Below are positions 1-18,905 of a DNA stretch of 64,000 nucleotides, in pieces. Every line of letters starts with the position of its first letter. The first letter of the stretch is position 1. Made by a program: the position numbers and the translations under genes. The notes under the pieces are model-generated. The model did no database searches, was not told the origin of the DNA, and saw only the letters and a list, made by a program, of their open reading frames with translations. The stretch comes from Candidatus Woesebacteria bacterium (GTDB lineage Bacteria > Patescibacteriota > Microgenomatia > UBA8517). The DNA is taken from the NCBI GenBank assembly GCA_013426185.1, contig CP058602.1, positions 399,123 through 463,122 of the forward strand, written 5' to 3'.

Positions 1-451
1 AGGAAGATTAATAAGGCCTGCAATTTTATTAAGACGATAAAACTTGATTACCATTAAAATAAGAGTAAACCACAAAGAAATAATTATAAACGCTCCAAGA
101 AGGGGATTTTTCAATCCAAAAAAGCCAATAGACCAGAAAGAATTCAAAATTAATTGAATAATAAAGATGCGAACCGCTTCATTTTTTTCTTTCCCCCCTT
201 CTGTCTTTAAGATAAGATAAAAAGAAATACCCATAAGAAAATACAAAAATGTCCAAACAGGACCAAAAACAAAATTTGGAGGGCTAAAAGATGGTTTTTT
301 CAAAGTAGAATACCAAGTTGGAATACTAGAAAAAGTAAAAATGGAGCCTACAAAACATGCTAGAAAAGGTAAAAGCAAAGAAAAAAACAGCTTTTTCAGA
401 TTTAGATTAAGAGAAGATTTCATCAATCAAATATTAGCACTGTATTAATAA

Positions 452-1627
452 TTAACCAAGCCATTTCTTTTTGAGGTCAACAAAATCACCATTGATAATA
501 GAATCTCTAATTTGATTCATTAAATTATTGATAAAAAAGACATTGTGAATTGTTGCAAGCCTCAAGCCCAAAATCTCACCAGAAGTCAAAAGATGGCAAA
601 TATAAGCTCTCGAAAAATTAAGGCACGAATAACAATTGCAAACCTTGCTAAGAGGTCTTTCGTCTGACTTAAAAGTGCTTTTTTTAATATCAAGCCTAAA
701 TTTATTTGACCTTTTTCCTCCATCTTCAGGATGAATAAAAAGAAGCCCAGTTCTTGCCATTCTCGTAATTCCGGTGTTGTCAAAAGTATCAATCCCTCTT
801 GCAATAGCTTCAAAAATGCCCTCAGGCCCACCCCCTAAGCCTAAAGCGTGAACTGGTTTTTCGTCAGGCAAGATATCAGAAATTGTATTAAGAGCTTCAG
901 AGGTAATTTTGGGATCAGAGCCTATTGCCTCGCCTCCAATAGCAATTCCAGGAAATCCGAAGGAAAGCACAAAATCAAGCGATTGTCTCCTTAAATTTTT
1001 ATCCAAATCCCCTTGAACTATGCCATAAAGTGCCTGAAATTCGCCTTTTTTATTCAACTTTTGCCAAGCCAAAAATGACCTTTCTTCCCACTTCAAAGTT
1101 CTCAAAAAAGCCTCTTTAGCTAATTTTTTGGGCATATTCAAAGATTGAGGCTCGTCAAGCGCCATAATAATGTCAGCACCCAATATTTTTTGAATCTCAA
1201 TTGATTTCTCAGGTGTTAAAAGATGCAAAGAACCATCAAGATACGATTTAAAAAGCGCACCTTTATCATTAATCTTAACAACTTTAGCTTCGTCTTCTTC
1301 GCCTTTTGACCACAAAAAAGAAACTTGATAACCACCACTATCTGTGATTGTCGGGCCTTCCCATTTCATAAAATTTGCAAAACCGCCAAACTTTTCTATT
1401 ACTTCAAGACCAGGTTTAAGATAAAGATGATAAGTATTAGCCAGAACCACCTGAGTTTTTGCATCTTTTAAATCCTCAGGGCTTAAAGTGCGAACAGAAG
1501 CGCGGGTTGCAACAGGAGAAAAGGCTGGAGTTTTAATTATTCCATGAGGAGTCTTGATAACACCAGCTCGAGCTTTAGTTTTTAAATCTTTGCCAACTAT
1601 TTTAAAAGAAAAAAGAGACATCAGCAA
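452..1627 (-). CDS. tgt: queuine tRNA-ribosyltransferase (tRNA-guanine transglycosylase)
   Basis: 391 aa. Tgt-like N-terminus (KTPHGIIKTPAF), LGLGGGPEG, C-terminal zinc motif CNCYSC...H. Confidence 0.9.
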   Translation of the reverse strand: MLMSLFSFKIVGKDLKTKARAGVIKTPHGIIKTPAFSPVATRASVRTLSPEDLKDAKTQVVLANTYHLYLKPGLEVIEKFGGFANFMKWEGPTITDSGGYQVSFLWSKGEEDEAKVVKINDKGALFKSYLDGSLHLLTPEKSIEIQKILGADIIMALDEPQSLNMPKKLAKEAFLRTLKWEERSFLAWQKLNKKGEFQALYGIVQGDLDKNLRRQSLDFVLSFGFPGIAIGGEAIGSDPKITSEALNTISDILPDEKPVHALGLGGGPEGIFEAIARGIDTFDNTGITRMARTGLLFIHPEDGGKRSNKFRLDIKKSTFKSDERPLSKVCNCYSCLNFSRAYICHLLTSGEILGLRLATIHNVFFINNLMNQIRDSIINGDFVDLKKKWLG

Positions 1628-1668
1628 ATTCTAGCAAAAAGATTGGGGAAACTAAATTAAGGCGAAGA

Positions 1669-1920
1669 TTATTCGCTATCCTCAGTGTCAATTCTTGCCC
1701 AAAAGCAGTTCTGACATTTCTTAGGTAGTCGCCCCAGAACTTTCTCTGTTTCCCCAATCTTTTCGAGGCTCCGCTCAAAAATCCTGTCTTCCATATCGGG
1801 AGGAAGACGGAAATCTAAAACTGAATTCAGACCTTCCAGAGCTTCTTCATACTCGTCTTGAATCCGAACAATAGTCTCTACCCAAGGACATCCGCCATTG
1901 CAACTAATTCTTTCAACCAT
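1669..1920 (-). CDS. small Cys-rich (zinc-ribbon-like) hypothetical protein
   Basis: 83 aa with CNGGC...C and CQNC pairs. No family recognised. Confidence 0.4.
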   Translation of the reverse strand: MVERISCNGGCPWVETIVRIQDEYEEALEGLNSVLDFRLPPDMEDRIFERSLEKIGETEKVLGRLPKKCQNCFWARIDTEDSE

Positions 1921-1983
1921 AAACTAAATAGAAATTAAAATAATATAAACAAAAAGTCAAGTCAAAAGATCAAGCTCTTTCTA

Positions 1984-2517
1984 TCAAGGACTAGTTGCAA
2001 TCCATGCTATCTTATACTTGCCAGTTTCAACCTCTTTAAGATTTATCCATCTTTTATTTATTCCTTCCACCCAACCGTAATTGGGAATAGGAAGATCAGT
2101 TAAATTCTTTTTAAGAGAAACATCTATATCAACCTCAAAAGAATTGCGAGTCTTATCTATCTTTGACTCTTTGATATTAACCGATTTAAAAGAAGAAAAA
2201 TTGTTTAAAGAAACAGCCCAACTTTGCATTCCTGCGTCGTCTTTCAGATCCATCATAAGAACAGCATCGGAAATTCTGCCTCCATCTATTAATTCACAAA
2301 AAGTCCTGACCATATCTTCTTTTGATGGCAAAGGGGTACTAATTTCAGGAGAAGGAGATAAAACAGCAGTTAAAATCGGAGAATTCAAGACCTCGGGCTC
2401 ATTAGTATTTTTCTTATTTAAAAATTTACCGGCCAAAAAGAAAACTCCAACAAAAGCAGCCAAAATCACAAAAAACAAAATCCACCTTTTTGCAATTTTT
2501 GCAAGCATTATACACAC
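1984..2517 (-). CDS. membrane-anchored hypothetical protein
   Basis: 177 aa, single N-terminal TM helix, then a soluble domain. Confidence 0.5.
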   Translation of the reverse strand: MCIMLAKIAKRWILFFVILAAFVGVFFLAGKFLNKKNTNEPEVLNSPILTAVLSPSPEISTPLPSKEDMVRTFCELIDGGRISDAVLMMDLKDDAGMQSWAVSLNNFSSFKSVNIKESKIDKTRNSFEVDIDVSLKKNLTDLPIPNYGWVEGINKRWINLKEVETGKYKIAWIATSP

Positions 2518-2548
2518 AGATTATATAGCAAAAAGAAGATTAACAAAA

Positions 2549-2587
2549 ACATCAATTTGATCCCGGATCAGGGTAATGGCATTTCTT
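2549..2587. repeat. 39-bp copy of the secA 3'-end (direct repeat partner of 8463-8501)
   Basis: 35/39 identical to 8463-8501. The minus strand reads FKKCHYPDPGSN-stop, i.e. a SecA C-terminal zinc-finger tail, in an intergenic position. Confidence 0.7.
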
Positions 2588-2611
2588 GAAGTGCTAGCCA
2601 AATAGGAAACC

Positions 2612-3205
2612 TTATATCTCTATTTCTTTCATCTCCAAAGGTGACCAATCGATATACCTCGCTAAATCAAGAAATACCAACTGATCATATTTTTTTCCCG
2701 CAGCAATAACTCCAAGTAGATGCCTGAAAAATATTGCGTGTCCAACCACAGCAACTCTATTATATCTCTCTTTTTGTTTTTTAAGAAATTTTAAAAATTT
2801 CTCTGCCCTTGCCTTTATTTCGTTAAAACTTTCGCTGCCATCATATTTCCAATTAGGATCTTTACGATATTCTAAAAGCCCCCAATCCCAAAATTTTCTT
2901 GCCTCTTCTCGACTTTTACCGTCTAAAAACTTGGGCCTAATATACTCATAAATATAATCGACAATTTCATAGTTGCCTTTACCAAAAAGCAAATCTGCCG
3001 TTCTTGTTGCCCTAACTAAAGGAGAACAATATACTTTATCTACCTTTAGATCAGAATAAAGCCCTTTTTCAACTGAGGTTTCATCTATTATTGCATCTGG
3101 GCTTTGAGATTTCCCCTCTTCTGAATCAATTGTCTTAGCATGGCGAATTAAATATAATTTCATACAGTCAAAAGTTATTCTATATAAAACATCAATTCTT
3201 TTCAC
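2612..3205 (-). CDS. histidine phosphatase family protein (phosphoglycerate mutase-like)
   Basis: 197 aa, N-terminal LYLIRHAKT (RHG catalytic motif), later His (VVGHAIF). Confidence 0.75.
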   Translation of the reverse strand: MKRIDVLYRITFDCMKLYLIRHAKTIDSEEGKSQSPDAIIDETSVEKGLYSDLKVDKVYCSPLVRATRTADLLFGKGNYEIVDYIYEYIRPKFLDGKSREEARKFWDWGLLEYRKDPNWKYDGSESFNEIKARAEKFLKFLKKQKERYNRVAVVGHAIFFRHLLGVIAAGKKYDQLVFLDLARYIDWSPLEMKEIEI

Positions 3206-3254
3206 CTTTTCTATAAGATTCTAGGCTCAGAAAAAACAAAAAGAGGCTTGCAGA

Positions 3255-3372
3255 TGCTTTCGATTCCTAACTTTTGGGTGTGTAAAGCTTGCGAAGAAGC
3301 CTTCAGGTTCCTAACTTTCGATGTCTTTTGGTTTTTCTTCCAGCCTTTTGGTTCCTAACTTTCGATGTCTGC
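3255..3372. repeat. 44-bp tandem repeat (~2.5 units) across the 3' end of the kinase gene
   Basis: ggttcctaactttcgatgtct at 3306-3326 and 3350-3370 (period 44). Degenerate copy cgattcctaactttt at 3259-3275. The two full copies are read in different frames (TSKVRN / HRKLGT). Confidence 0.7.
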
Positions 3373-4013
3373 ATTAATTTTTCCAAACCATCGGCTACAT
3401 ATTCTAGTATTTTGGTTTTATCATCAAATAGAAACGTATTTCTTTGGCAAGAAAGTTTTTCTGTTAAAAATTTATTCAATTTTAAAGCTGTTTTAATTTG
3501 TTTCTTATTCAGAAATCTCCTATGAGTAATAGATTGCATGTTATTAATTAATCTCTTTTCATCATCTAATATTAAATAAAAATCTAGGCAATCCACTCCC
3601 TTAATCTCAATCAATGTTTTTAATTCAGGAAATATGTGGTTGCCTTCTATAATAAAATTCTGCCTTTCGGTTTTGGAAAAGCGTAAAATATTAACAATCG
3701 GTGTAAATAAGGCTTTCGCCTGGCTAAAATAATTATTAAAAAGATCTTTATCTGAATTTGAGTATTTGTAAAGATCGTATGTATGACAAGTAAAAATTTC
3801 TCCTTTTTCCTCTAATAATGAATAATAAACAGCCCTGATTATACCGGTAGGAATAATAGCCATACTATGTAAGAAACCCTGAAGTTCCCTCGCTATTGTT
3901 GATTTCCCGGTACCACAATAACCGCCTATAAGGATTACTAGAGGCCTCTTAATTCTGCCTGAAGACCACATTTCGTTAAATCTATTAAAAACCGAAAAAA
4001 TTCTCTTATTCAT
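3303..4013 (-). CDS. P-loop kinase (AAA / 2-phosphoglycerate-kinase-like nucleotide kinase fold)
   Basis: 236 aa, Walker A GGYCGTGKSTIA near the N-terminus. 4-nt overlap with the upstream nucleotidyltransferase gene. Confidence 0.6.
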   Translation of the reverse strand: MNKRIFSVFNRFNEMWSSGRIKRPLVILIGGYCGTGKSTIARELQGFLHSMAIIPTGIIRAVYYSLLEEKGEIFTCHTYDLYKYSNSDKDLFNNYFSQAKALFTPIVNILRFSKTERQNFIIEGNHIFPELKTLIEIKGVDCLDFYLILDDEKRLINNMQSITHRRFLNKKQIKTALKLNKFLTEKLSCQRNTFLFDDKTKILEYVADGLEKLMQTSKVRNQKAGRKTKRHRKLGT

Positions 4014-4639
4014 AACCCAATATTTCTAAATAAGTTATAAACTCTATCTTTTGCAACTTGTTGTGCACCAGGATCTCTAAAATTATTTAAAGAAAAGTTT
4101 ATTATATGCCACCACCGCATTTTCTCCTCATCGGGTAAAGAGGAAAAATTATTTACAAGCAATCTTACATCTTTAAAATCTTTTTCACGAGGCGGTATTT
4201 CTCCTTTATTTGCTAATTTTTGGACTAAAATAATTGCGGGGTGGACTATTAATACTCCATGATCCTCACGCTCTATCTCAACTGCGCTAGACACTAGAAA
4301 ACCATCCTCGAACGATAAACCATTCCAAAAAGTATTAGGCCTTACAACATCAATCCTCCTAAAATGTAAATCTGTATCCAACCACCCATTTACAACCACA
4401 ATATCTATATCTCTATGATACCGACTCTTTCTACCAATAAAAAAATCCATCGCCAACCCTGAGGCTAAAAGGTAATTAATTCTCCCCTCTGAAGAACGTT
4501 GAGGGAATTTTGATATCAATTTGAAAAAACCCTCAAATGTTCCCCCTTTCAAAAGCATTCCTAAAGACAGTCTTCTCAAATAACTACTAAATTCTTCTAA
4601 ACTAAAGCCCTTTCCTCGAAAAACTTCTAATTCTTTCAT
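4010..4639 (-). CDS. Pol-beta-superfamily nucleotidyltransferase domain protein
   Basis: 209 aa, GS...D.D core (SGLAMDFFIGRKSRYHRDIDIVV). Confidence 0.6.
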   Translation of the reverse strand: MKELEVFRGKGFSLEEFSSYLRRLSLGMLLKGGTFEGFFKLISKFPQRSSEGRINYLLASGLAMDFFIGRKSRYHRDIDIVVVNGWLDTDLHFRRIDVVRPNTFWNGLSFEDGFLVSSAVEIEREDHGVLIVHPAIILVQKLANKGEIPPREKDFKDVRLLVNNFSSLPDEEKMRWWHIINFSLNNFRDPGAQQVAKDRVYNLFRNIGL

Positions 4640-4662
4640 GGTATGAACAAGAACTTAAAATA

Positions 4663-5484
4663 TTAAAATCTCACTACTATTTTTAATGCTACATGATCAG
4701 ATAGTAATCCTTTATTAAGCTCTTTATCAATCAATGGTTTTTTAAAAAGATGCTCTCTTTTTTCAACTCCAATATCTTTGGCTGATGGCTTTAACAAAAT
4801 GTAGTCTAACCTCTTTCCTTTTTCACCTTTCGGTAAAAATACTTTTTGAAAAGTTGGAGAATCAAAATTTTTGTAAGGGTCCATAACTCCTAATACCTTA
4901 ATCAATTCTTTATAAAAAGCCGAATTTTTAGAAATATTAAAATCCCCGGTCAAAACAATCAGTTTATATTTACTCAATCTCTTAATAACATTTTTTAACC
5001 TCTCAATAGAAGCACTATAGATTTGATTAAATTTATTAGCCGAAGACCAATCATGAGTAGGATTAGCCACCATGTGAGTATTTGCCACTACAACTTTCCC
5101 AGAAAGAAACTTTGAAAACAAAATTCCTTTTCCTGAAAGAAGGTTTCGAAAAATAACTCTTAACCATCCTTCCACAGCCAAACAAGCCACAACACTTAAA
5201 GGATAAGTATAGGCAAAATAAGCGCTTTCAAAAGGTTTTAATTTTGAGAAGGTAACCACCCCCCCTCTTGGGCCAAGCAATGCCCTTTCATAAACACAAT
5301 AAGGAAAATTAGTAAGTTTATTCTTAATAATTTCTAAATGTTTATATGTAAAAACTTCCTGAAGGTTAATAATATCCAGATTTTCGTTATTTAAAAAATC
5401 CCCTATCTTAACTAACCTTTTAACAGTAGATTCGCTAAAAATAGGTGTTCCTTTTATATTAAAAGTAACTACAGATAATTGCAT
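4663..5484 (-). CDS. endonuclease/exonuclease/phosphatase (EEP) family protein
   Basis: 273 aa, N-terminal INLQEV, later TGDFN and SDH motifs typical of the EEP fold. Confidence 0.75.
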   Translation of the reverse strand: MQLSVVTFNIKGTPIFSESTVKRLVKIGDFLNNENLDIINLQEVFTYKHLEIIKNKLTNFPYCVYERALLGPRGGVVTFSKLKPFESAYFAYTYPLSVVACLAVEGWLRVIFRNLLSGKGILFSKFLSGKVVVANTHMVANPTHDWSSANKFNQIYSASIERLKNVIKRLSKYKLIVLTGDFNISKNSAFYKELIKVLGVMDPYKNFDSPTFQKVFLPKGEKGKRLDYILLKPSAKDIGVEKREHLFKKPLIDKELNKGLLSDHVALKIVVRF

Positions 5485-6488
5485 TTTTTTGATATTTTAC
5501 AGAGCGTTGTTATTTTTTTCAAAAAAATTACAATATGTTTTTTCTGAAGAACCAAAACTAGTAATATCATAGTATAATCTCCTGTGCTTAGAAGTACCGA
5601 GACTGCTATATACATGGGTAACCAGACATAATAAAAATCAGATAGAGGAAACTCATTTAAAGAAAAAATATTAATAAATCGCCTACTATGAGGGGAAAAT
5701 AGATAGACCAAGATCCAAAAAATTAAATAAACAAGAAATAGAATCTTCATGTTAATATTTTTAACCAAAAAAGAAAAGAATAAAAGAAGCAACACTTCTG
5801 GCAAATATAAGATCTTAATAAGCTTTTGGCTAAATTTCACATCTTTAACAGTGGTTAAAGTTTTAACACCTGAACCTAGATCACTAGAAAAATCTTCTAT
5901 TTGGTGCATCAACATAGCTCTCAACCCCAAAACGAAAAGTGCAACCGAAAAAAGATAACCCTCAGTTTTATTGTAATCTAAAACAGAAAACACCAACAAA
6001 ACAGGCAGAGTCCTTTGGATCAAAGAGCCAACAACTATATCAAGAAAAGGCTTTTCCTTAAATCTCACTGGCGGAGAAGAATAAAAAACTACCAAAAAAA
6101 ACATTATTACCCACCAAAACATTATTTTTAAAACAAAACCTCCAAAAAACCACCAAAAAATAGAGGATAAAATAAAAAACAAAACCGAAGTTAAAAAAAT
6201 ATGATAATCTTTAATATTAGCACTTGTGCGAATTTTGCCAGCTTTTAAATCTACAAATTTATCCCAATAATCGTTAAGGATAGAGGCAAAAGAACCATAA
6301 AGCACAAAAAATGCAAGAAGAATCCAAAATACTATTCCAAAACCTGGCGTCAGTTCTTTGAGACCTCCTTTTTCTATAATAACTAGACCAATTGAAACAA
6401 TAAAAAAAATTAACTTTGTATTTGACCAAGAATGCCAACGAATAAACTTATTCAAGAATTCAAGTCTACCCGCTAATGATCCGAACAT
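5469..6488 (-). CDS. UbiA-family prenyltransferase (polytopic membrane protein)
   Basis: 339 aa, about 8 TM helices, NDYWDKFVD matches the UbiA NDxxDxxxD motif. Confidence 0.7.
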   Translation of the reverse strand: MFGSLAGRLEFLNKFIRWHSWSNTKLIFFIVSIGLVIIEKGGLKELTPGFGIVFWILLAFFVLYGSFASILNDYWDKFVDLKAGKIRTSANIKDYHIFLTSVLFFILSSIFWWFFGGFVLKIMFWWVIMFFLVVFYSSPPVRFKEKPFLDIVVGSLIQRTLPVLLVFSVLDYNKTEGYLFSVALFVLGLRAMLMHQIEDFSSDLGSGVKTLTTVKDVKFSQKLIKILYLPEVLLLLFFSFLVKNINMKILFLVYLIFWILVYLFSPHSRRFINIFSLNEFPLSDFYYVWLPMYIAVSVLLSTGDYTMILLVLVLQKKHIVIFLKKITTLCKISKKCNYL

Positions 6489-7747
6489 TTCATATAATTA
6501 GAATAAGTTTGTAAAAACTTTTCTCTCAACCCTTTAATTAAAAAATTGTCTGGTAGAATAATTTCTTTTGATTGATTTATCCACTGATCCAGGTATCGAC
6601 TATCCGGGATAAGGGAAACCAGATATTCAAAAAAACTATCTAGTTCTCTTCGAGGTAAATTTTTACTAACATAATCAAACATCTCATTATATATACCGTG
6701 GCCGATTATTTCAAGATCACGTTGTTTTATCGATCTCAACTTAATAAAGCTTTCAGCTAAACCAATAATTTCTGCCCAAACAGGCAAGTCCCACAACCAA
6801 TAAAGATTTTGTAATTTATTAAAAGCAATTCCCCTTATTAGAATCATTCTAATCATTCTTCTTAAAACCATCTTTAAGTATTCATCATTATTTTTATCCA
6901 AATCTAATTCTCCTGGAAATTCCTCTCTCGCTAAAGAAAAAACCTCCGATTTGTTATTGTTTAGTTTATAACCTTTATTTTCATCTTTTTTCCCCAAAAA
7001 AAATATTTCCCTTCTAATACTAGCTAATGAAACAAAAGGACTCACATAATGATTTATTCCCATCCTGTTTGCCACAATACCAAAACGATTATTCTCCCCC
7101 GTTACCGGATTTCCTTCATCATCAAAGGGTTGAAAGTGTCCAATTCTTTTAAAGGTCTGAACATGCATAGCATAACCACCCGAACCTCTAGTCTCCTTGA
7201 TCCCAGACAAAGTTAAAGACCAGACGACCTGAAACCTTATCCAAGCTGATCCAACTATTAGCATCAAACTACTTTTTCTGCTCTTCTGACTATTAACCCA
7301 TTTGATCAACTCAGTAGGATTATTCCTCTCACAAAAACTGACCAATTCGAAATTCCTATTAATAGCAGAAACTATTTCTTGGAAGAACATTTTATGAACA
7401 AAAACATCGGCATCAACCGTTGAAATAATCGCATTATCTTTAGAATTCCCTAATTCCGAATCTAAAAGATTTAAAACATATTTAAAACCAGTATTTCTTG
7501 GTTGGCCTCCGCACCTCAATTTAGAATTTTCCTCAATAACCTTAAAAGAATCAAAACCATTTTTATACCTTAACCCTACCTCTACAGTTTTATCTTCGCT
7601 CCTATGATTTACAAGAACTAAATTAAGACTAAAATTACCATAACTACCAGCATCTAACAAACTTTTTAATATAAATCCAATATACCTCTCCTCATTATAG
7701 GCCGGTACTATTATAAATATTCTTTCCCTCACGTTTTTTGGAAACAC
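6473..7747 (-). CDS. family 2 glycosyltransferase
   Basis: 424 aa, N-terminal FIIVPAYNEERYI (GT-A DxD-type signature). Confidence 0.75.
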   Translation of the reverse strand: MFPKNVRERIFIIVPAYNEERYIGFILKSLLDAGSYGNFSLNLVLVNHRSEDKTVEVGLRYKNGFDSFKVIEENSKLRCGGQPRNTGFKYVLNLLDSELGNSKDNAIISTVDADVFVHKMFFQEIVSAINRNFELVSFCERNNPTELIKWVNSQKSRKSSLMLIVGSAWIRFQVVWSLTLSGIKETRGSGGYAMHVQTFKRIGHFQPFDDEGNPVTGENNRFGIVANRMGINHYVSPFVSLASIRREIFFLGKKDENKGYKLNNNKSEVFSLAREEFPGELDLDKNNDEYLKMVLRRMIRMILIRGIAFNKLQNLYWLWDLPVWAEIIGLAESFIKLRSIKQRDLEIIGHGIYNEMFDYVSKNLPRRELDSFFEYLVSLIPDSRYLDQWINQSKEIILPDNFLIKGLREKFLQTYSNYMKCSDH

Positions 7748-7933
7748 TTTTTCACTTTTTAATACTTTCCCTAAAAAAACCAGCTCTTTCCTTAAATCAG
7801 GCTGGTTTCTAAGTATCTAAAATAATCTAAACGTTAACTGACTATATCTTATCACCAAACCCCTAATTCATCAAATTCCGGTTTAGTGTAAAGACATATG
7901 CGACACTTTTAGGTAAGATAACAGATTATGTAG

Positions 7934-8490
7934 GTGAGAAATATGCATATTGTCAAACTAAACGATAAAGAGGTTTTAAGGCCCAAACTTTTGGGCGCAT
8001 ATGAGGCTATGGAACCTAAAAATGTCAGGTATTTGTGTAAACTTTCTGAATACATCATTCAACTTTCCACAGGGTTAAGAAAACCACACAAACATTGTAC
8101 AATTGATTTTGTAAAAAACTTTTGACTGAAACTAAAAAGAAAGTTATAATAATTAAGTTAATCCAATCTGATAATGACCATGAATTTCAGGCTAAATTTG
8201 AAGAATATTTAAAATCATCAAACATTAGTATTCAACATACTTGGATTCACACACCTGATCAAAATGGAGTTGTTGAAAGAAGCCATAGAACCGATGAAGA
8301 GGAATTCTACCAAGAAACTGAGATAGACTACTCAGATTTGGAAGATATAAACAACAAGCTCAAGCTCTGGCTTGAATATTACAACACTAAAAGATTACAC
8401 TTTAGTCTGAATTATTTGACACCCGAAGAATACCAGTGTCGCATATCTAGTTACCTCGCACGACATCAATTCGGTCCCGGATCGGGGTAA
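7934..8490 (+). mobile_element. degraded DDE transposase (rve integrase-core, IS481/IS3-like) pseudogene
   Basis: ORF 8122-8490 carries the rve C-terminal part (SDNDHEF...NGVVERSHRT...YNTKRLHFSLNYLTPEEY). The upstream 63-aa ORF is out of frame. No HTH or N-terminal DDE residues remain. Confidence 0.7.
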
Positions 8491-8501
8491 TGACATTTCT
8501 T
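8463..8501. repeat. 39-bp direct repeat (partner of 2549-2587) overlapping the secA stop codon
   Basis: The minus strand encodes the SecA tail KKCHYPDPGPN-stop. The plus strand is the read-through tail of the transposase ORF. Confidence 0.7.
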
Positions 8502-11225
8502 CCATTTCTTCCCCGACCCGCACCAACAGGGATCGTTTCGGCCAATCTTTTTGGAGGAAGCCTGAACCCTTTTGACCAAAGGCTTGTCTCCACTTACCGA
8601 CTCTTTTACTTCGGGAGATTGGCTTAAGCCCATCATATCGGATGTATCAACATTAGTTTGAGCCATATCAAGCGGAATCTCCTGAGGCCTTTCCATAACA
8701 CCAATCCTAAATATTCTTCGCGTAAGTTCGTCATCAATTTTTTCGAGAAGACTTTCAAAAGAATTATAAGCTTCATTTTTAAACTCAACCAAAGGATCCT
8801 TCTGTGCGTAAGCCTGAAGCCTTACATTTTCTCTTAAGCTATCCAAATAATCTATATGTTCAATCCAAAAATGATCAATCGCAGAAAGATAAGCAAACTT
8901 GTCAATTTGGTTTGAGATATCAGTGCCATACTGCTTTACCCGCGCATCATAAACATCTTTTACAACTTTCAACAAAAACCCTCTAATCTCATTTTCTCCC
9001 TCTAATTCGCTCAATTTTTTCTTAAAAGCGTCTTTTGAGGCATCATCAAAAGGAACTATTTCCAAAAATAAAGCCAAAAGATATTCATAATCAAAACTAC
9101 CTTCCCGTTGTGAAGACAAAATAATTCTGTCAATTTTCTTCTCAAGCTTTTCAAAAACAACATCATGAAGGTCATCTGCCATCAAAACTTTCCTTCTTAA
9201 CTTATAAACAACCTCCCTTTGCTGATTAGCAACATCATCGTATTCAACTACACTCTTCCTCAAATCAAAATTGAAGCCCTCAACCTTAATTTGCGCCTGC
9301 TCAATCGCCCGCGAGACAAGCCTATTTTCTATTGGCTGGTCTTCAGGAATAGCAAGCCTATCCATCAAAGATTTGATTTGATCTCCACCAAAAATACGCA
9401 TCAAGTCATCTTCAAGAGAAAGATAAAAACGAGAGGAACCAGGGTCACCCTGCCTGCCTGAACGACCACGAAGTTGATTATCAATTCTTCTTGATTCATG
9501 CCGCTCGGTGCCAATCACATAAAGCCCCCCAAGGCTAACAACTTTGTCATGATCCTCTTGCCATTTTTTGACTTCTTTTGATTTTGCCCATTTTTCCTTG
9601 GAAACCCCAGCCGGACAATCCGGAAAAGAACCTCCTAAGACAATATCAACTCCTCGCCCAGCCATATTGGTTGCAACAGTTACTGCATGGAGTTTACCAG
9701 CATCAGCAATAATTGATGCTTCTTTTTCGTGGTTTTTGGCGTTTAGGACATTGTGGGGAATTTTCTTTCTCTTTAAGTACTGGCTTATTATTTCGTTCTT
9801 TTCAATAGAAGTCGTACCCACCAAAACTGGCTGACCCTTTTTGTATCTTTCCTCAATATCAGAAACTATGGCTCCATATTTGGCACGAAGAGTTTTGTAA
9901 ATCAAATCAGGGTGATCAACCCTAATCATTGGCTTATGAGTTGGAATAACAACCACATCAAGTTTATAAATCTTTTTGAATTCCTCAGCTTCAGTGGCTG
10001 CAGTTCCTGTCATACCTGAAAGAACCTCATACATCCTGAAGTAATTCTGAAAAGAAATAGTCGCCAAAGTCTTTGACTCCTGCTGAATAGGAACGCCTTC
10101 TTTGGCCTCAACTGCCTGATGCAAACCATCACTCCAACGCCTGCCAAACATCAGTCTTCCCGTAAACTCATCAACAATAATCACCTGATTATCTTTGACA
10201 ATATAATCTCTATCTTTCAAAAAAAGCGTCTTGGCACGAAGCGCGTTTTCAATATGATGTATGGCGTCAAAATCCTTTTCATAAAGGTTGGGAACACCCA
10301 AAAGCTTTTCTACCCTTGCAATACCATGGTCAGTTAAAGTCGCTGTTTTTGCCTTTTCGTCAATTTTAAAATCAGTATCAGGGTTTAATTTTTCAACAAG
10401 CTGAGCAAATTGATAATATTTCTGGGTTGGTTCACTATCAGGAGCAGAAATTATAAGCGGCGTTCGCGCCTCATCAATTAAAACTGAGTCAACCTCATCA
10501 ACCACGGCAAAATAATGCTCACCCAAGCCTTCCTTTCCACCAGTCTTTTTGCCAAGAGGTGATGATTGAACAATCTCATCCAAACTTTGGGCCATATTGT
10601 CGCGAAGATAATCAAAACCAAACTCATTATTGGTGCCATAGGTAATATCACACTCATAAGCCTCGCGACGAGAGGATGGCCTTAAATGTTCAAGCCTCTC
10701 ATCCCCATGGCTTTTGTCAGAATAATTAGGATCAAAGACAAAAGATTTTGACTCCTGAATAATAATACCAACCGAAAGCCCCAAGAGATTAAATGTCGGT
10801 CCATTCCAACCAGCATCGCGTCTTGCTAGATAGTCATTGACCGTCACAAGATGAGCGCCTCTTTCTTTTAAGGCACGAAGATACAAAGCAGGAACAGCAG
10901 ATAAAGTTTTTCCCTCGCCTGTTTTCTGCTCTGCCACTTTGCCTTCAAACAAGGCAACTGCCGCCATCAACTGGACATCAAAATGCCTAAGGCCAATAGC
11001 GCGAAAGGAAGCCTCACGCACTAAAGCAAAGGCTTCAGGCAAGATGGATTCCAAAGACTCGCCTTTATTAATTCTTTCTTTAAACTCCTGTGTCTTTTTG
11101 GCAAAATCCGAGTCTTTTAGCTTTTTGACCTTTGAATCGTAAGAGTTGATTTTCTCAACTACTTTGGCAAGGCGATCAACTTCTTTAGCATTTAAATCAA
11201 GCAATTTGGAAATAAATTTAAACAT
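8466..11225 (-). CDS. secA: preprotein translocase ATPase SecA
   Basis: DEAD-like motor domains throughout. C-terminal zinc finger CWCGSGKKWKKCH. Likely start is MFKFISKLL, 8 codons inside the listed ORF. Confidence 0.95.
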   Translation of the reverse strand: MFKFISKLLDLNAKEVDRLAKVVEKINSYDSKVKKLKDSDFAKKTQEFKERINKGESLESILPEAFALVREASFRAIGLRHFDVQLMAAVALFEGKVAEQKTGEGKTLSAVPALYLRALKERGAHLVTVNDYLARRDAGWNGPTFNLLGLSVGIIIQESKSFVFDPNYSDKSHGDERLEHLRPSSRREAYECDITYGTNNEFGFDYLRDNMAQSLDEIVQSSPLGKKTGGKEGLGEHYFAVVDEVDSVLIDEARTPLIISAPDSEPTQKYYQFAQLVEKLNPDTDFKIDEKAKTATLTDHGIARVEKLLGVPNLYEKDFDAIHHIENALRAKTLFLKDRDYIVKDNQVIIVDEFTGRLMFGRRWSDGLHQAVEAKEGVPIQQESKTLATISFQNYFRMYEVLSGMTGTAATEAEEFKKIYKLDVVVIPTHKPMIRVDHPDLIYKTLRAKYGAIVSDIEERYKKGQPVLVGTTSIEKNEIISQYLKRKKIPHNVLNAKNHEKEASIIADAGKLHAVTVATNMAGRGVDIVLGGSFPDCPAGVSKEKWAKSKEVKKWQEDHDKVVSLGGLYVIGTERHESRRIDNQLRGRSGRQGDPGSSRFYLSLEDDLMRIFGGDQIKSLMDRLAIPEDQPIENRLVSRAIEQAQIKVEGFNFDLRKSVVEYDDVANQQREVVYKLRRKVLMADDLHDVVFEKLEKKIDRIILSSQREGSFDYEYLLALFLEIVPFDDASKDAFKKKLSELEGENEIRGFLLKVVKDVYDARVKQYGTDISNQIDKFAYLSAIDHFWIEHIDYLDSLRENVRLQAYAQKDPLVEFKNEAYNSFESLLEKIDDELTRRIFRIGVMERPQEIPLDMAQTNVDTSDMMGLSQSPEVKESVSGDKPLVKRVQASSKKIGRNDPCWCGSGKKWKKCHYPDPGPN

Positions 11226-11468
11226 ACTCAGTGCAAAAAATATTAACAAGGTAAGTATAGCAAAGAAAACTGCTAAGTGATAATGAAGACTTAAGAAATC
11301 AAAAACAGTAGGCTAAAGGCCGTAAAAGAAAAAAGCAACCAAAGAACGCTTCTTCCTTTTTAAAAAGACGCTTTAGCCTACTGTAATTTTAAGCCAAACA
11401 AACTTAAAAGAGGTGAGGCAAACCCCTAAAAATAAGGATAAAAAAGGGTCTGCCCCACCTAATAAAAC

Positions 11469-12800
11469 TTAATACTGAGGATCAGGGTTCTCCTCACAAT
11501 ACTTCAAAATACGCCTGTGCGTCTCCTCTGGGGGAAGAAGTCTCCCTGCGCTGTCAAAGAAACAGTCTTTTTTGACTTTTTCCTGTTCCTTCCGAAGCGC
11601 CTCTGGGATTAACCTCTCGGAACGTCGGGTATAGGTTTCCAAAGGTATAACACTTATCTTTGGAAAAGGAATCTGAGGACTAGGGACGAGGCGAATTCGG
11701 GAAGTGGTATTATGATCCGCTGTCATCAGAGCAAACTGAGCTAGTGGATCCGCAGACTTGTTGCCATCTAAAACCGATACTATGTTAGTATTAGATGTAC
11801 CAAGCTTAGGATAAAAACCACCTCTTCCAACCATAGCCGCAACCCTACTTATCGCCTCAGTAGGAATTCCACCCGTAACCATTCCACCACCCGGTTCTGC
11901 TACAGCTCTAAAAGCATCAACTGCACGCGACGCGCTCTCATAAAAAGTAATACAATGGTAGTGCGCCCCAAGAACAAGGCTACGGTGGTACCCCCAAAGA
12001 AAGACCTGCCACTGAAATTCCTGCGGGACCCCCTTGGGAGCAGACCAAACTTCAACTAAGCCATGGGGGGTATTTTGGAGAAGATCTAAATAATCACTTA
12101 GGTCCTCACCACGCTCTCCCACAAAGACCAACACTGCACAAATCCTCGAGTCCTGAGTCAATTTTAAAACTTCCTTCCAGGCCTCAAGAATAAGAGTAGT
12201 TTTACCCAAGCCGCCCTCACCAAGAATATAAGTTGTTTGCCCATAACCTTGAACAGCTCCCAAAAGATAAATCATTCTCCAAGCTATACTTCCGCCTTTA
12301 TCCAGAGGGATTATCTCTTGAGGATATTCAGGCAACACTTCAAAGTCAAAAAATGGCCTATGAGAGAAAGGCTTTTGGCCATTTACGGAAGTGATACAGA
12401 CCAGATCACCCTCAACCCCCACCTCCACTTTATCCCCCATCCTCAAATTGTAATACTTCACTATAGGTGGAGGGACTTCCAAACCCCAGCTTTTCAAATC
12501 ATCCGAATTGATATCACCCTTTTTCAAAAGGTCGGCATAATCTGCAGGGTTTAGGTAGTGCGGGTAAGGGTTCGGAAGAGTCACACTCTCTCCATCAAAA
12601 GCCCAAAAACACGTGGGGCCGTCTGGCTTGACCAGGACTGCCTGAGAACTCTGGCCTATTATCTGATCAGATGGAAAAGAAGTTAAAACCCTTCGCAGGT
12701 CTTTTTCTAAAACCAAAACGGTCCTGGGAACAGGTTTATCCCCATAAAGGAGTAGCTCTTTAGGGTCAACCTCCTCCTGAATAACATAAGCAGAAATCAT
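11469..12800 (-). CDS. P-loop NTPase (GxGGxGKTT Walker A; VirB11/STAND-like, family unresolved)
   Basis: 443 aa, ILGEGGLGKTTL and a Walker-B-like VLVFVGERGED. GC-rich codon usage. RBS aaggagg upstream. Confidence 0.55.
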   Translation of the reverse strand: MISAYVIQEEVDPKELLLYGDKPVPRTVLVLEKDLRRVLTSFPSDQIIGQSSQAVLVKPDGPTCFWAFDGESVTLPNPYPHYLNPADYADLLKKGDINSDDLKSWGLEVPPPIVKYYNLRMGDKVEVGVEGDLVCITSVNGQKPFSHRPFFDFEVLPEYPQEIIPLDKGGSIAWRMIYLLGAVQGYGQTTYILGEGGLGKTTLILEAWKEVLKLTQDSRICAVLVFVGERGEDLSDYLDLLQNTPHGLVEVWSAPKGVPQEFQWQVFLWGYHRSLVLGAHYHCITFYESASRAVDAFRAVAEPGGGMVTGGIPTEAISRVAAMVGRGGFYPKLGTSNTNIVSVLDGNKSADPLAQFALMTADHNTTSRIRLVPSPQIPFPKISVIPLETYTRRSERLIPEALRKEQEKVKKDCFFDSAGRLLPPEETHRRILKYCEENPDPQY

Positions 12801-12945
12801 AGTTCCTCCTTTTTCTATTACTATTTTACCCTCGAGGACTTGGCGCTATTTTTCTTTTTGGATACGCCACGCCATAGGCTTAAAGCAAAACTTAAAGACC
12901 ATGGCATGGCGTACCCAATCGTTTGTTTGGCTTTCAAAGTGCCCT

Positions 12946-13075
12946 TCTTTAATTAAAGCTATAGAAGGCTTATCTTCCTGCTTTAAGCAAAGAAGAATTA
13001 AATTTTTAAATAAATTCTCTAGTTTTAACCAACTAACAAAAGCTAGTTGGCTAAAAAAGAGACACAGCAAGAAAG
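12946..13075. repeat. island repeat copy 1 (module 2 only), preceded by a distinct 12-bp-stem hairpin at 12862-12915
   Basis: Shares gtgcccttcttta...ccaactaacaaaagctagttggctaaaaaagagacacagcaagaaag with copies 2 and 3. Lies upstream of CDS 11469-12800. Confidence 0.8.
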
Positions 13076-13304
13076 TTAATTAAAAAGGGCGTTTACCAAA
13101 AGAAAAGGAGGATGGGAATCAAAGATCCCCATCCTCTGGGCCAAACTCAAAAATTAGAGATCCAGTAATTAATGAGACTAAGTAATATACAGAGAAAAGA
13201 AAGCACCAAAAAACTTAAAACATAAAACAAGCAAGATCGCCACACCATTGTCTTTTCAAACCTGTTGGGATCTGGCAATTCAAATCTTACATATCTTCCC
13301 ATAG

Positions 13305-13799
13305 TTACCTCAACTCCATAAACTGGCACAAAAACAAATAGTAATACCGGCGAGAAGGAAACTCTTTCCTAACTGCTGGGCCAACAATAGCAAGACTCCA
13401 ATCAAGGTAAAAAGGTATTCCAGTGGATGAAACAGCAATACTATCAACGCCAAATTCAACCAGAGCCTGTTTCGGCCAAAGGGAAGCCATCGCTTCTAAA
13501 AATCTATCCACCCAAAGAGCCAGATTACAACCCTCGTCTAAAAACTCTTCGAGAGTAATGTAGCCATTATTAGGATAGACAATAGCTCTTTCACCCTCAG
13601 GACTAGCCTCAAACCCAAGGCCTAACTTTCTAGCCTGAAAGTTAAAAGCCTCTAGAACACGATCCCTCTGATCAGGGTTGCCAAAAATCTGGACTCTAGC
13701 AAATTCTGGGGAATATCTAAATCCCCAAACAGGAAAACTCCCATCCCAGGATCCAGGAAGAAAACAATTAAACGCAGGAGCATAAATATCTGTGTCCAC
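13305..13799 (-). CDS. hypothetical protein (island)
   Basis: 164 aa, GC-rich ORF, no recognisable motif. Confidence 0.45.
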   Translation of the reverse strand: MDTDIYAPAFNCFLPGSWDGSFPVWGFRYSPEFARVQIFGNPDQRDRVLEAFNFQARKLGLGFEASPEGERAIVYPNNGYITLEEFLDEGCNLALWVDRFLEAMASLWPKQALVEFGVDSIAVSSTGIPFYLDWSLAIVGPAVRKEFPSRRYYYLFLCQFMELR

Positions 13800-13814
13800 T
13801 TTTCCTCCCTCTTT

Positions 13815-15053
13815 TTACTCCTGATCGCTCCCTACATAGATAACAGAACCAGAAGGGCCTTGGCTTTCATCAACCTCATTAGAAGATGAAGAAGTTGAAG
13901 ACGAACTAAGAACCCTGCCAGTTAACAACGAAAAGAAAGGGCCCTGCTGCCCTTGCTGCTGCTGTTCCGCCTGCAACCGTCTGGACTCATCCCTCGCTCT
14001 GAAAAGAATCTCTTTCAGACGAGAAACATCATCCATATAAGGAAGAAAATCTGTGCCGGATTTATTAATGTAGATGATTAGCAAAGCCCCAGTGCCATAC
14101 TTCCTGTACCAGAGTGAAAGGAAAAATTCCTTAAACCACCCGGTTTTGAACCTGTTTTTTACCTCCGGATCTAAATCGACTGTAACATCCTCCGGATCTG
14201 CAGCCGTCAACACATCCTGGATACCAGAGTTGACAGTCAAAGAGGTAACAGGAAGCCCTGAATGGCCACCTGAAAAAAACAGATGCTTCAAAAAAGCCCG
14301 TGTAGTCTCAGGAAGTAAAAGTATTGCTAAGACTAAAATAATGCTCCCAAAGATCCACAAGTTAAAAATACCAACAATCAAAAGAAAAACCATAAAGATC
14401 AATGGCTTGATAACAGGCATCAAGCCAAGGAGGTTCTTCCTGATCCTTAACAAGACTGAATTGTGTGTAAAGACTGTAAAAATTGTCGTCCTCCGATCCC
14501 ACTCCAGAAGGGATAACTTCACAACAAGGACCAACACTAAAAGACAAACAAGAATTATATTTGCCCCAATATTTAGAGGCAAAGGTAAAAAAAACCATAA
14601 AGCGAAAGAGATAAACCAACCCAAGATGGTAACAAGTGGCAAAAATTGCCAGTTCATCACAAAATCCACTGTCGCCACTTTTGAAGGCAGCTGACGGTGG
14701 AATAAAATCTCACGATCTCGAGCGCGATAAACTAACTTGTCTTCTTTGGGAAGCCAGAAAAAACTAAATAGCCGGAGAAGAAAACCAGGTTTCTCCTCCG
14801 ACCCGACCGCAATTTTGGAAAAGATGGAATACAACAATATTACAGCCGCTAAAGTAGCAAGGCTGTAAAAAATGTAATATCCCGCTCTTCCAAAATCGAT
14901 CTGAAATTCAGGAAGACCAAAACTTACAAGGTCTATCCCAAAAAGGCTTAGCATAAAAAGGTAACCCAAAGCGGCTACCAAAACAAAAACCAAGGCCAAT
15001 ATAGCCCCTAAAAAATTCTTTCCTTCCATAGATCTCTCCCTTCCGAAAAACAA
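13815..15053 (-). CDS. polytopic membrane protein (island), C-terminal Q/S-rich tail
   Basis: 412 aa, at least 6 hydrophobic helices, RBS gggagag, low-complexity QAEQQQQGQQG...SSSTSSSS tail. Confidence 0.5.
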   Translation of the reverse strand: MFFGRERSMEGKNFLGAILALVFVLVAALGYLFMLSLFGIDLVSFGLPEFQIDFGRAGYYIFYSLATLAAVILLYSIFSKIAVGSEEKPGFLLRLFSFFWLPKEDKLVYRARDREILFHRQLPSKVATVDFVMNWQFLPLVTILGWFISFALWFFLPLPLNIGANIILVCLLVLVLVVKLSLLEWDRRTTIFTVFTHNSVLLRIRKNLLGLMPVIKPLIFMVFLLIVGIFNLWIFGSIILVLAILLLPETTRAFLKHLFFSGGHSGLPVTSLTVNSGIQDVLTAADPEDVTVDLDPEVKNRFKTGWFKEFFLSLWYRKYGTGALLIIYINKSGTDFLPYMDDVSRLKEILFRARDESRRLQAEQQQQGQQGPFFSLLTGRVLSSSSTSSSSNEVDESQGPSGSVIYVGSDQE

Positions 15054-15061
15054 ATTTTTAT

Positions 15062-15320
15062 GGCTCCTCTTGTTTTTGGGTGAGCCTCGATTAATCTCCT
15101 AAACTCAAATTAGAGAATTAAGAAACTAATCAAGGCTCACCCAGATTGGTGTGGGATAATCTTCTTTCTTGCTGTGTTGTTAAAGTGCCCTTCTTTACTT
15201 AAAGAATAGAAGGCTTATCTTCCTGCTTTAAGTAAAGAAGAATTAAATTTTTAAATAAATTCTCTAGTTTTAACCAACTAACAAAAGCTAGTTGGCTAAA
15301 AAAGAGACACAGCAAGAAAG
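15062..15320. repeat. island repeat copy 2 (modules 1+2), immediately upstream of CDS 13815-15053
   Basis: Near-identical to 18647-18905. Contains a 9-bp stem gggtgagcc/ggctcaccc, a 15-bp perfect stem cttctttacttaaag/ctttaagtaaagaag, and the hairpin ccaacta..tagttgg. Flanked by cttgctgtgt/acacagcaag inverted repeats. Confidence 0.85.
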
Positions 15321-18615: not shown

Positions 18616-18646
18616 AAAACTCTCCTTTCCGAAAAAAAATTTTACT

Positions 18647-18905
18647 GGCTCCTCTTGTTTTTGGGTGAGCCTCGATTAATCTCCTAAACTCAAATCTAGA
18701 GAATTAAGAAACTAATCAAGGCTCACCCAGATTGGTGTGGGATAATCTTCTTTCTTGCTGTGTTGTTAAAGTGCCCTTCTTTACTTAAAGAATAGAAGGC
18801 TTATCTTCCTGCTTTAAGTAAAGAAGAATTAAATTTTTAGATAAATTCTCCAGTTTTAACCAACTAACAAAAGCTAGTTGGCTAAAAAAGAGACACAGCA
18901 AGAAA
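18647..18905. repeat. island repeat copy 3 (modules 1+2), immediately upstream of the VirB4-like ATPase gene
   Basis: Differs from copy 2 by only a few substitutions. Confidence 0.85.

Follow-up and report, generated by a model that had tools for sequence, protein, structure and literature searches.

Patescibacteria have tiny genomes with few recognisable mobile elements, and their acquisition of accessory genes is poorly understood. In islands specific for dusA, a dedicated integrase family is reportedly found next to the site of insertion. Cis-mobilisable elements (CIMEs) retain their att sites while their integration genes are absent (PMC6323972), and in the tycheposons or tRNA-anchored islands of Prochlorococcus full and partial copies of the target flank the cargo, later integrations push older ones inward, and degenerate remnants are left (10.1101/2020.12.28.424599). 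Here we analyse a stretch of 64,000 nucleotides from a Candidatus Woesebacteria bacterium (contig CP058602.1, positions 399,123 to 463,122 of the forward strand; hereafter the window), in which a unit of 5.9 kb lies between secA and a second copy of the secA 3' end. Like the CIMEs at the 3' end of fda beside ICESt1 and ICESt3 in Streptococcus thermophilus, this locus involves the 3' end of a housekeeping gene, reconstituted, with accretion at the same site. Like the tycheposons, it belongs to a streamlined genome and has a full and a partial target copy flanking the cargo, with older elements displaced. We consider it rather probable that window 2588-8462 is a non-autonomous, CIME-like cassette inserted at a site-specific hotspot in the last codons of secA, by an enzyme acting in trans.

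The unit is bounded by two 39-nt direct repeats at 2549-2587 (copy A) and 8463-8501 (copy B), which the first-pass annotation of this DNA had reported and which a repeat search recovers at the same positions with 35/39 identities (90%). Translation and gene order agree with that annotation on three further points: both repeats encode the SecA tail, copy B is the true 3' end of secA, and copy A is an orphan fragment in a spacer. The features of the locus that matter for the argument are the following.

8466..11225, minus strand: secA, the target gene, 919 aa, ending in ...CWCGSGKKWKKCHYPDPGPN-stop (translation)
8463..8501, minus strand: copy B, the attL-like junction; last 11 secA codons, stop and 3 nt, reading KKCHYPDPGPN-stop
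8490-8501, minus strand: 12-nt core of copy B, AAGAAATGTCAT, i.e., the KKCH codons (sequence)
8455..8462: 8-nt spacer, CGTGCGAG on the minus strand, separating copy B from the right inverted repeat of an insertion sequence (IS) fragment (sequence and coordinates of the inverted repeat)
2588..2611, minus strand: conserved end signature GGTTTCCTATTTGGCTAGCACTTC, directly abutting the orphan tail; unique in the window, with an nhmmer envelope that reaches 2619
2576-2587, minus strand: 12-nt core of copy A (sequence)
2549..2587, minus strand: copy A, the attR-like junction; orphan secA tail KKCHYPDPGSN-stop plus 3 nt, reading stop-HFKKCHYPDPGSN-stop
1984..2517, minus strand: flanking host gene, 174/177 aa, with an N-terminal transmembrane segment and without a Pfam match

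The two copies differ at four positions (C/T, T/C, T/C, A/G). With up to 3 mismatches allowed, the copy-B 39-mer matches only itself in the 64 kb window and gives 0 matches in 100 shuffles, and the repeat search over 1-14000 finds this 39-nt family in 2 copies only; by our own estimate, the chance of any 35/39 pair within 64 kb is about 1e-6. Copy A stands in the spacer between a His_Phos_1 gene, whose stop is at 2612, and the 1984-2517 gene, and the 8-nt spacer at 8455-8462 is presumably the leftover secA-proximal end of the inserted DNA. The Pro-to-Ser difference of the orphan, which the first-pass annotation had pointed out, is a single-nucleotide polymorphism at window 2560 that the window shares with L004 (13 kb at 100% identity) and that 5 other contigs lack: in L001-L003, L091 and L092 the orphan reads KKCHYPDPGPN-stop and matches copy B at 36/39 positions, all 3 differences being synonymous. 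Both junctions are spanned in 6 independent assemblies (L001-L004, L091 and L092; 98.5-100% identity), so the arrangement is not an assembly artefact; 3 shorter contigs (L005-L007) cover only the side with secA, the IS fragment and the first cargo gene. The species is represented in the samples SRR6186653, SRR27800363, SRR29635775 and SRR35774032 and in JGI 3300045950 and 3300002733. An identical 919-aa protein, with SecA Pfam domains including SEC-C, is encoded on 7 contigs, and its homologues put the host among Woesebacteria/Microgenomates, Patescibacteria.

If the unit had been inserted, a related genome might carry an empty site in which secA is directly followed by the 1984-2517 gene, as the first-pass annotation predicted. 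We found this site in L093 (ENA ERZ27247220; SecA 97% identical in amino acids), which has a single 39-mer and the gene order secA, 30-bp spacer, 174-aa gene, 83-aa gene and the gene for tRNA-guanine transglycosylase (TGT). BLAST aligns L093 with window 13137-8463 (93.5%) and then with 2587-1 (96.6%), the two blocks overlapping on one 39-mer, and the empty-site junction consists of the secA body, one tail and TTTTGTTAATC. Since the breakpoints in L093 fall at the edges of the repeats, the polymorphic, inserted unit is window 2588-8462, i.e., 5,875 bp. The earlier claim of an insertion at the secA 3' end, with a reconstituted end and an orphan, is thus upheld by the empty site and by the recurrence with unrelated cargo described below, while the recombination that it invoked is a mechanism that we infer. 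In more distant relatives, the whole interval from secA to TGT is variable: TGT follows secA directly in L089 and L090 (SecA 87%), and L088 (SecA 86%; at 786 kb, the longest contig with this SecA) has GH57, DUF5715, C39-like peptidase and EEP (endonuclease/exonuclease/phosphatase) genes between secA and TGT, and no orphan tail. The distribution is therefore patchy, with an insertion in the window, none in relatives at 97%, 87% and 86% SecA identity, and one again at 80%. A search of genome contigs with the whole SecA was uninformative for synteny, the best among the matches listed being 56% identical.

The arrangement recurs in other hosts with cargo that is unrelated from locus to locus. Seven insertions are complete, with a secA tail at one end and an orphan tail at the other (window, L094, L111, L107, L116, L123 and L118), and there are about 6 more orphan junctions without secA visible on the locus. 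In L094/L095 (SecA 80%), a 322-aa protein, an archaeal-type AdoMet synthetase, a 364-aa protein and a Peptidase_S51 are encoded between secA and the orphan, which reads KKCCYPKHG-stop where the genome's own secA ends in KKCCYPKYG-stop. Besides the secA 3' end, the window and L094 share only the 24 nt preceding the orphan and the start of the orphan itself, the junction being GGTTTCCTATTTGGCTAGCACTTC followed by AAGAAATG in the window and GGTTACCTGTTGGGCTAGCGTTTC followed by AAGAAATG in L094. A metagenome scan for GCTAGCNNTTCAARAARTGYNNNTAYCC returned 14 loci with about 10 distinct sequences, all of which share extra conserved upstream bases that the pattern does not demand. The resulting signature has the approximate consensus (A)TRTGNGGTNCCCTATNT(N)GCTAGCAYTTC, of 24-30 nt, with a short form close to GGTNCCCTATNT(N)GCTAGCAYTTC. 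A profile of it has a single match in the window (2588-2617, E=5.6e-6), and the signature stands just before the orphan tail in all complete insertions but L123, where it is divergent. The window and L094, whose hosts are related, have a common subtype with an extra G and GGTTWCC. In the scanned loci where secA is present (L118, L111, L107 and L116), it lies 0 to 2.5 kb upstream, with 0 or 1 unrelated open reading frame (ORF) between; L123 was picked from the list of homologues by its aberrant SecA tail. The content between secA and the orphan in these five loci is as follows.

L111: one 210-aa membrane protein
L107: one 459-aa protein
L116: a single 763-aa protein containing sigma-70 region 4
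L118: no cargo; the displaced tail is preceded by 45 bp comprising surrogate tail and signature, with the TAG inside GCTAGC serving as the secA stop
L123: NUDIX, GNAT, nucleotidyltransferase-like and APH-like genes; divergent signature ...CATATGTCATTTC before the orphan KKCHYPKEG-stop

These loci define the junction to the codon. The two copies of L116, and likewise those of L123, have exactly 12 nt in common, AARAARTGYCAY, and differ from the next base on, so that SecA ends in KKCH/LISDLD-stop and KKCH/MNSDLGRK-stop, and the orphans read KKCHYPN-stop and KKCHYPKEG-stop, respectively. In every case the orphan starts with the same AAR codon, directly after ...CAYTTC. Taken together, the 12-nt sharing and the fixed start give a common core, AARAARTGYCAY, that consists of the Lys-Lys-Cys-His codons. 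The Cys and His of KKCH are the final two zinc ligands in the C-terminal zinc finger of SecA (E. coli motif CXCXSGX8CH); insertion right after the His codon thus keeps all zinc ligands, even with an arbitrary replacement tail. A proper YP...stop tail comes with the inserted DNA in the window, L094, L111 and L107, which is why the repeat looks longer there (39, ~26-39, 24 and 24 nt, respectively). In L116 and L123, whose hosts are distant, the DNA after the His codon is similar (..TAGYGATTTRG.., at L116 939 and L123 12724, the secA ends), which suggests a cassette sub-family with a common secA-proximal end.

The length of shared sequence also bears on whether a dedicated site-specific reaction is needed at all. 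A circular DNA carrying a secA tail could integrate by a single RecA-dependent homologous crossover, of the Campbell type, the signature then having some other, episomal function. The tail of L093 could be read in this way: its 39-mer differs from the species-typical copy A at position 9 and from copy B at positions 18 and 30, and the three ancestral differences among these tails are compatible with a single reciprocal crossover in the stretch from position 9 to position 18. This pattern is consistent with such a crossover and not diagnostic of it, because 2/3 of the orderings would fit one crossover by chance. A highly recombinogenic population and a recombinase that was not found would also suit this explanation. 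It is quite unlikely all the same, since L116 and L123 share only the 12 nt, far below efficient RecA substrates, and yet have their junction at the same codon, since the longest runs common to both tails of L111 and L107 are 5 to 8 nt at most, and since a fixed junction right after a conserved signature across distant hosts is site-specific behaviour.

The sequences of the tails are informative about their past. Across tail pairs, 18 differences are synonymous or stop-to-stop and 2 are not, where about 16% synonymous would be expected at random; this count overstates the bias in part, since KKCxYP was imposed on the orphans of L111 and L107 by the search pattern, and the pairs not ascertained by pattern (window and L094) give 7 vs 2. 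Of the differences in the species-typical window orphan, 3 are synonymous and 0 nonsynonymous. Since nearly all differences are synonymous or stop-preserving, both tails have a coding history. Such a bias would be predicted if one tail came from the cassette and the other were the host original, and not if the target had simply been duplicated and the orphan had then decayed neutrally. Tails also move between hosts. The secA-attached tail of L118 is identical to that of the window species at 29/30 nt, whereas the secA genes are 66.6% identical overall (SecA 63%) and no 10-codon window of them exceeds 93%; nearer relatives of the window (L088, L089 and L094) have other tails (QLPTG-stop, KLPDGSTV-stop and KYG-stop). 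Tails are thus exchanged independently of the secA body. Finally, units occur in arrays. L113, L114 and L115, contigs of 275-357 kb from one organism, have two signature-plus-tail units in the same orientation, 5.1 kb apart, with a 1,550-aa ORF between them, and the distal unit is the more decayed (ACTAGCACTTT with KKCHHPQYR-stop). L117 has a second, decayed unit in the same orientation 2.6 kb downstream. To judge from these sequences, arrays with a decayed distal unit are the pattern that would be expected if new units entered at secA and displaced older ones.

These observations can be arranged in a mechanism. The core of the hotspot would be the 12 nt of AARAARTGYCAY, encoding Lys-Lys-Cys-His. 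At its secA-proximal end, the insert would supply replacement codons after the His and a stop, leaving SecA intact; at its distal end, it would place the 24-30 nt signature against the displaced original tail. We infer a conservative site-specific recombination between the attP of a circular cassette and an attB in the secA tail, with gain rather than loss as the direction of events. The attP would comprise the signature, the KKCH core and the surrogate tail, such that the junction of the putative circle would read as the reverse complement of 2611..2588, the core, TACCCCGATCC...TGATGT and CGTGCGAG. The recombinase, of whichever kind, would be encoded elsewhere and supplied in trans, and new units would enter at secA while older ones were pushed downstream.

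There is no recognisable recombinase in any of the 7 complete insertions (Pfam, NCBIfam and gene tables), as would be expected of non-autonomous units; tblastn with E. coli XerD and with a tyrosine integrase of the Candidate Phyla Radiation found none in the window or related loci, the genes flanking secA are not recombinases, and another 20 window ORFs of intermediate length proved to be ordinary genes of no recombinase family. A number of results weigh against this mechanism. No recombinase, circular form or excision event was observed. Scans of viral contigs with four patterns gave 0 relevant hits for a circular or episomal copy of the signature, BLAST of signature plus tail against phage and plasmid collections gave no match, and no autonomous, integrase-bearing member of the family was found among about 12 loci. 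The signature has none of the dyad symmetry or conserved secondary structure typical of att or attC sites (RNAalifold predicts 0 pairs over 12 signature-plus-tail sequences). Conservation across the family is limited to the distal end, the secA-proximal ends being alike only within subgroups (L116/L123 and window/L118). The polymorphism with L093 could equally be a deletion between direct repeats. The strains, for their part, diverge in a mosaic pattern: L091 has 99.85% identity over the cassette and left flank and is 3.5-4% divergent from about 9150 onward, inside secA, and L001 is divergent only within 196-1458. Breakpoints at the repeats were considered as a sign of independent transfer of the cassette between strains, and they lie elsewhere, near 9150 (inside secA) and near 1460 (inside TGT); hence, within the species, the cassette locus spreads by ordinary homologous recombination.

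Some of these results suit the main rival explanation, in which a single old duplication of the secA tail and signature has been inherited vertically in Microgenomates, the content between the tails turns over by homologous recombination, and empty sites of the L093 type are deletions. Deletion between the 39-bp repeats would give exactly the structure of L093, the strain mosaics reveal frequent homologous recombination with breakpoints off the repeats, the related hosts of the window and L094 share a signature subtype, and no recombinase was found. Other results sit badly with it. Each orphan resembles the tail of its own genome and not the other orphans, and the orphans keep a coding sequence and stop with synonymous-only divergence, which is not expected of a relic long untranslated. 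Arrays with graded decay imply repeated events, the insertion is patchy in close relatives (absent at 97%, 87% and 86% and present at 80% SecA identity), and near-identical tails occur in hosts with 63% identical SecA. The likeness of each orphan to its own genome, the synonymous-only divergence, the graded arrays and the patchiness all weaken this explanation, and we regard it as unlikely.

A third explanation starts from the transposase remnant next to copy B, which the first-pass annotation had associated with the integration of the unit. The relevant features are these.

7888..8454, plus strand: degraded IS481-family insertion sequence, 567 bp, with 20-nt inverted repeats of its own at 7888-7907 and 8435-8454 (85% complementary)
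8122-8490, plus strand: ORF of a C-terminal transposase fragment, 122 aa (Pfam rve_3, E=9e-16)
7934-8125: possible N-terminal transposase fragment

Under this explanation, the 5.9 kb unit was moved by the rve (IS481-family) transposase, of the DDE type, and the 39-bp repeat is a long target-site duplication; the rve_3 fragment does adjoin copy B, the IS fragment being 8 nt from it, and direct repeats do flank the unit as a target duplication would. The DDE transposase is not intact: NCBIfam IS481 matches it at 80 bits (cutoff 224) and over no more than profile positions 187-281 of 284. The inverted repeats bound 7888-8454 only and not the 5.9 kb unit, and the signature at 2588-2611 is no inverted copy of them; we had considered the signature as an inverted repeat of this IS from a likeness by eye, and a profile of 11 signatures has no match at 7888-7907 or 8435-8454, even at E<100. 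An rve gene is present in 0/6 of the other complete insertions. IS481-family target duplications are short, at about 4-15 bp, whereas the repeats here range from 12 to 39 nt and their copies differ at synonymous sites, unlike target-site duplications. Transposition of the unit by this enzyme is thus extremely improbable and effectively refuted, and the link drawn earlier between the rve remnant and the integration of the element does not hold. The IS481-family fragment is a later, unrelated and decayed secondary insertion that stands outside the mechanism. It has no second copy in the window or in the fetched loci outside contigs of the same species, and no BLAST match in phage and plasmid collections.

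Two other kinds of element came up as candidates for the locus. A group II intron, suggested by GTGCG beside copy B, has no intron RNA match and no reverse transcriptase, and the duplication of an exon does not fit one. The template and variable repeats of a diversity-generating retroelement do not apply either, as the differences between the copies are not adenine-specific and there is no reverse transcriptase among the cargo. The signature as a structured RNA finds no match in Rfam and no pairs in RNAalifold. In L108, about 680 nt upstream of the signature on the cargo side, there is a strong match to LOOT RNA (Rfam RF03000, 94 bits, E=2e-17) at 1470-1593 on the minus strand as stored.

The cargo of the window comprises six co-oriented accessory genes, and Pfam agrees with their earlier annotation.

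6473-7747, minus strand: GT2, glycosyltransferase family 2 (Pfam)
5469-6488, minus strand: UbiA prenyltransferase (Pfam)
4663-5484, minus strand: EEP phosphoesterase (Pfam)
4010-4639, minus strand: nucleotidyltransferase-like protein (weak Pfam match)
3303-4013, minus strand: P-loop kinase-like protein (Pfam)
2612..3205, minus strand: His_Phos_1 histidine phosphatase, the last cargo gene, not in the L121 operon (Pfam)
3303..7747, minus strand: the five-gene cargo operon GT2-UbiA-EEP-nucleotidyltransferase-kinase (Pfam, NCBIfam)

Going by family names only, GT2 with a UbiA-type prenyltransferase and phosphatases suggests the synthesis of lipid-linked sugars or modification of the envelope. The five-gene operon is also found in L121, from another organism, in the same order, with 67-74% identity in amino acids and 76.7% in nucleotides over window 7816-3373; there it occurs without secA, without the signature and without His_Phos_1. 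The first-pass annotation had proposed to compare GC with the flanks. GC in the cassette is low (0.31-0.33), which is not evidence of foreign origin: the homologous operon of L121 is likewise below the average of its contig (0.337 vs 0.376), so low GC belongs to the operon itself and does not prove that it arrived recently from elsewhere. Two traits of the cargo were considered and set aside, namely His_Phos_1 as a conserved core gene of the element, because the copies of the window and L113 are only 30% identical over 64 aa, and co-orientation of the cargo with secA as an integron-like trait, because that strand carries about 3/4 of all long ORFs in the window. The P-loop kinase gene has two 29-nt direct repeats (93%) at its 3' end (3298-3326 and 3342-3370, 44 bp apart), exactly where nucleotide homology to the L121 operon ends (window 3373). 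The kinase has 236 aa in the window vs 209 aa in L121 and may have been extended by a small tandem duplication.

The flanks of the unit have features of their own. The 174-aa and 83-aa genes (window 1669-2517) are missing in the 87% relative L089 (12800-12899) and may be an older insertion; beyond them we found neither signature nor orphan tail. Within the 3' part of the 83-aa ORF (…LPKKCQNCFW…), AAGAAATGTCAG at window 1711-1722 on the minus strand matches the KKCH core at 11/12 positions, which may be a coincidence or the relic of an old junction. L093 lacks 13 nt (part of TATAATCTGTGTGTATAAT) that stand at window 2507-2519; the spacer just upstream of the 174-aa gene, which contains TATAAT, seems to have undergone a small tandem duplication. 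A direct repeat of about 280 bp (15039-15319 and 18624-18905, 92-99% identity, with a partial third copy at 12866-13074) lies near the starts of hypothetical genes upstream of secA, and also occurs in L093.

The search for an autonomous relative also followed the SNF2/PLD helicase cargo of L117, which led to an unrelated defence island, L120, with integrases and without signature or secA. This defence-type island (L120 10001-23147) encodes an SNF2/PLD helicase, an MmeI-like methyltransferase, a tyrosine integrase and a large serine recombinase. In L094, a Y1 (IS200/IS605-type) transposase gene at 1717-2388 lies 8 kb upstream of secA, and we saw no link between it and the insertion site.

How, then, does the secA locus stand among the described systems? 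It has the hallmark of CIMEs, i.e., intact attL- and attR-like junctions and no recombinase or transfer gene (Pfam and NCBIfam find no transfer genes in the window cassette). It differs from them in that no cognate integrase-bearing element was found in about 12 loci, the target consists of the zinc-finger codons of secA, and the signature is new. We know of no conjugative partner in Patescibacteria. Tycheposons have their own tyrosine recombinase and target tRNAs, unlike the 7 complete units here, which lack a recombinase and target the tail of a protein-coding gene. As in integrons, there are recombinase-less units with one short site, a fixed chromosomal site and arrays in the same orientation, in which the newest unit would be nearest the site and the enzyme would act in trans; unlike in integrons, there is no intI-like gene next to the site (tblastn and Pfam on 30 window ORFs, a survey that is not exhaustive) and no attC-like fold, the site lies within a gene that needs a new end, and a unit has 0 to 6 genes. 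Integrative mobile elements exploiting Xer (IMEX) at dif, such as CTX, TLC and GGI with XerCD, also lack their own recombinase and have short att sites and tandem arrays, whereas at secA the GC skew has the same sign across the site and no dif-like dyad is recognisable. A dif site was rejected on these grounds: on either side the GC skew is negative, and its cumulative curve runs monotonically over 1-64000, so this is not the replication terminus. Islands specific for dusA likewise insert in a conserved housekeeping gene that is restored by element-borne sequence, and differ by the integrase adjoining their site, which is absent here. Among the traits of site-specific integrative elements in general, the locus has flanking repeats derived from the target and, in L093, an empty site with a single att, and has no element-encoded integrase; it therefore falls outside every integrase-defined family.

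We found no description of integration in the secA tail or of the signature in a full-text literature search, although absence there is not proof of novelty, and the evidence points to the secA-tail locus as an undescribed site-specific hotspot of gene capture. More tentatively, and with considerable doubt, Microgenomates, and perhaps other Patescibacteria, may have an integron-like capture platform at the KKCH codons of SecA, where a host or helper recombinase would stack signature-tagged, recombinase-less cassettes of 0-6 genes, each giving SecA a new C-terminal tail. At this locus, foreign genes enter an essential gene repeatedly and at a precise point, right after the last zinc ligand, so that the function of SecA is preserved. 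Its conserved tag makes the cassettes findable by sequence alone, which gives a handle on the flexible gene pool of uncultured Patescibacteria, and the tag and the secA tail together are a defined pair of DNA sites with which to hunt for the missing recombinase. Genetic tools, which this group still lacks, could possibly also be docked at the secA site.

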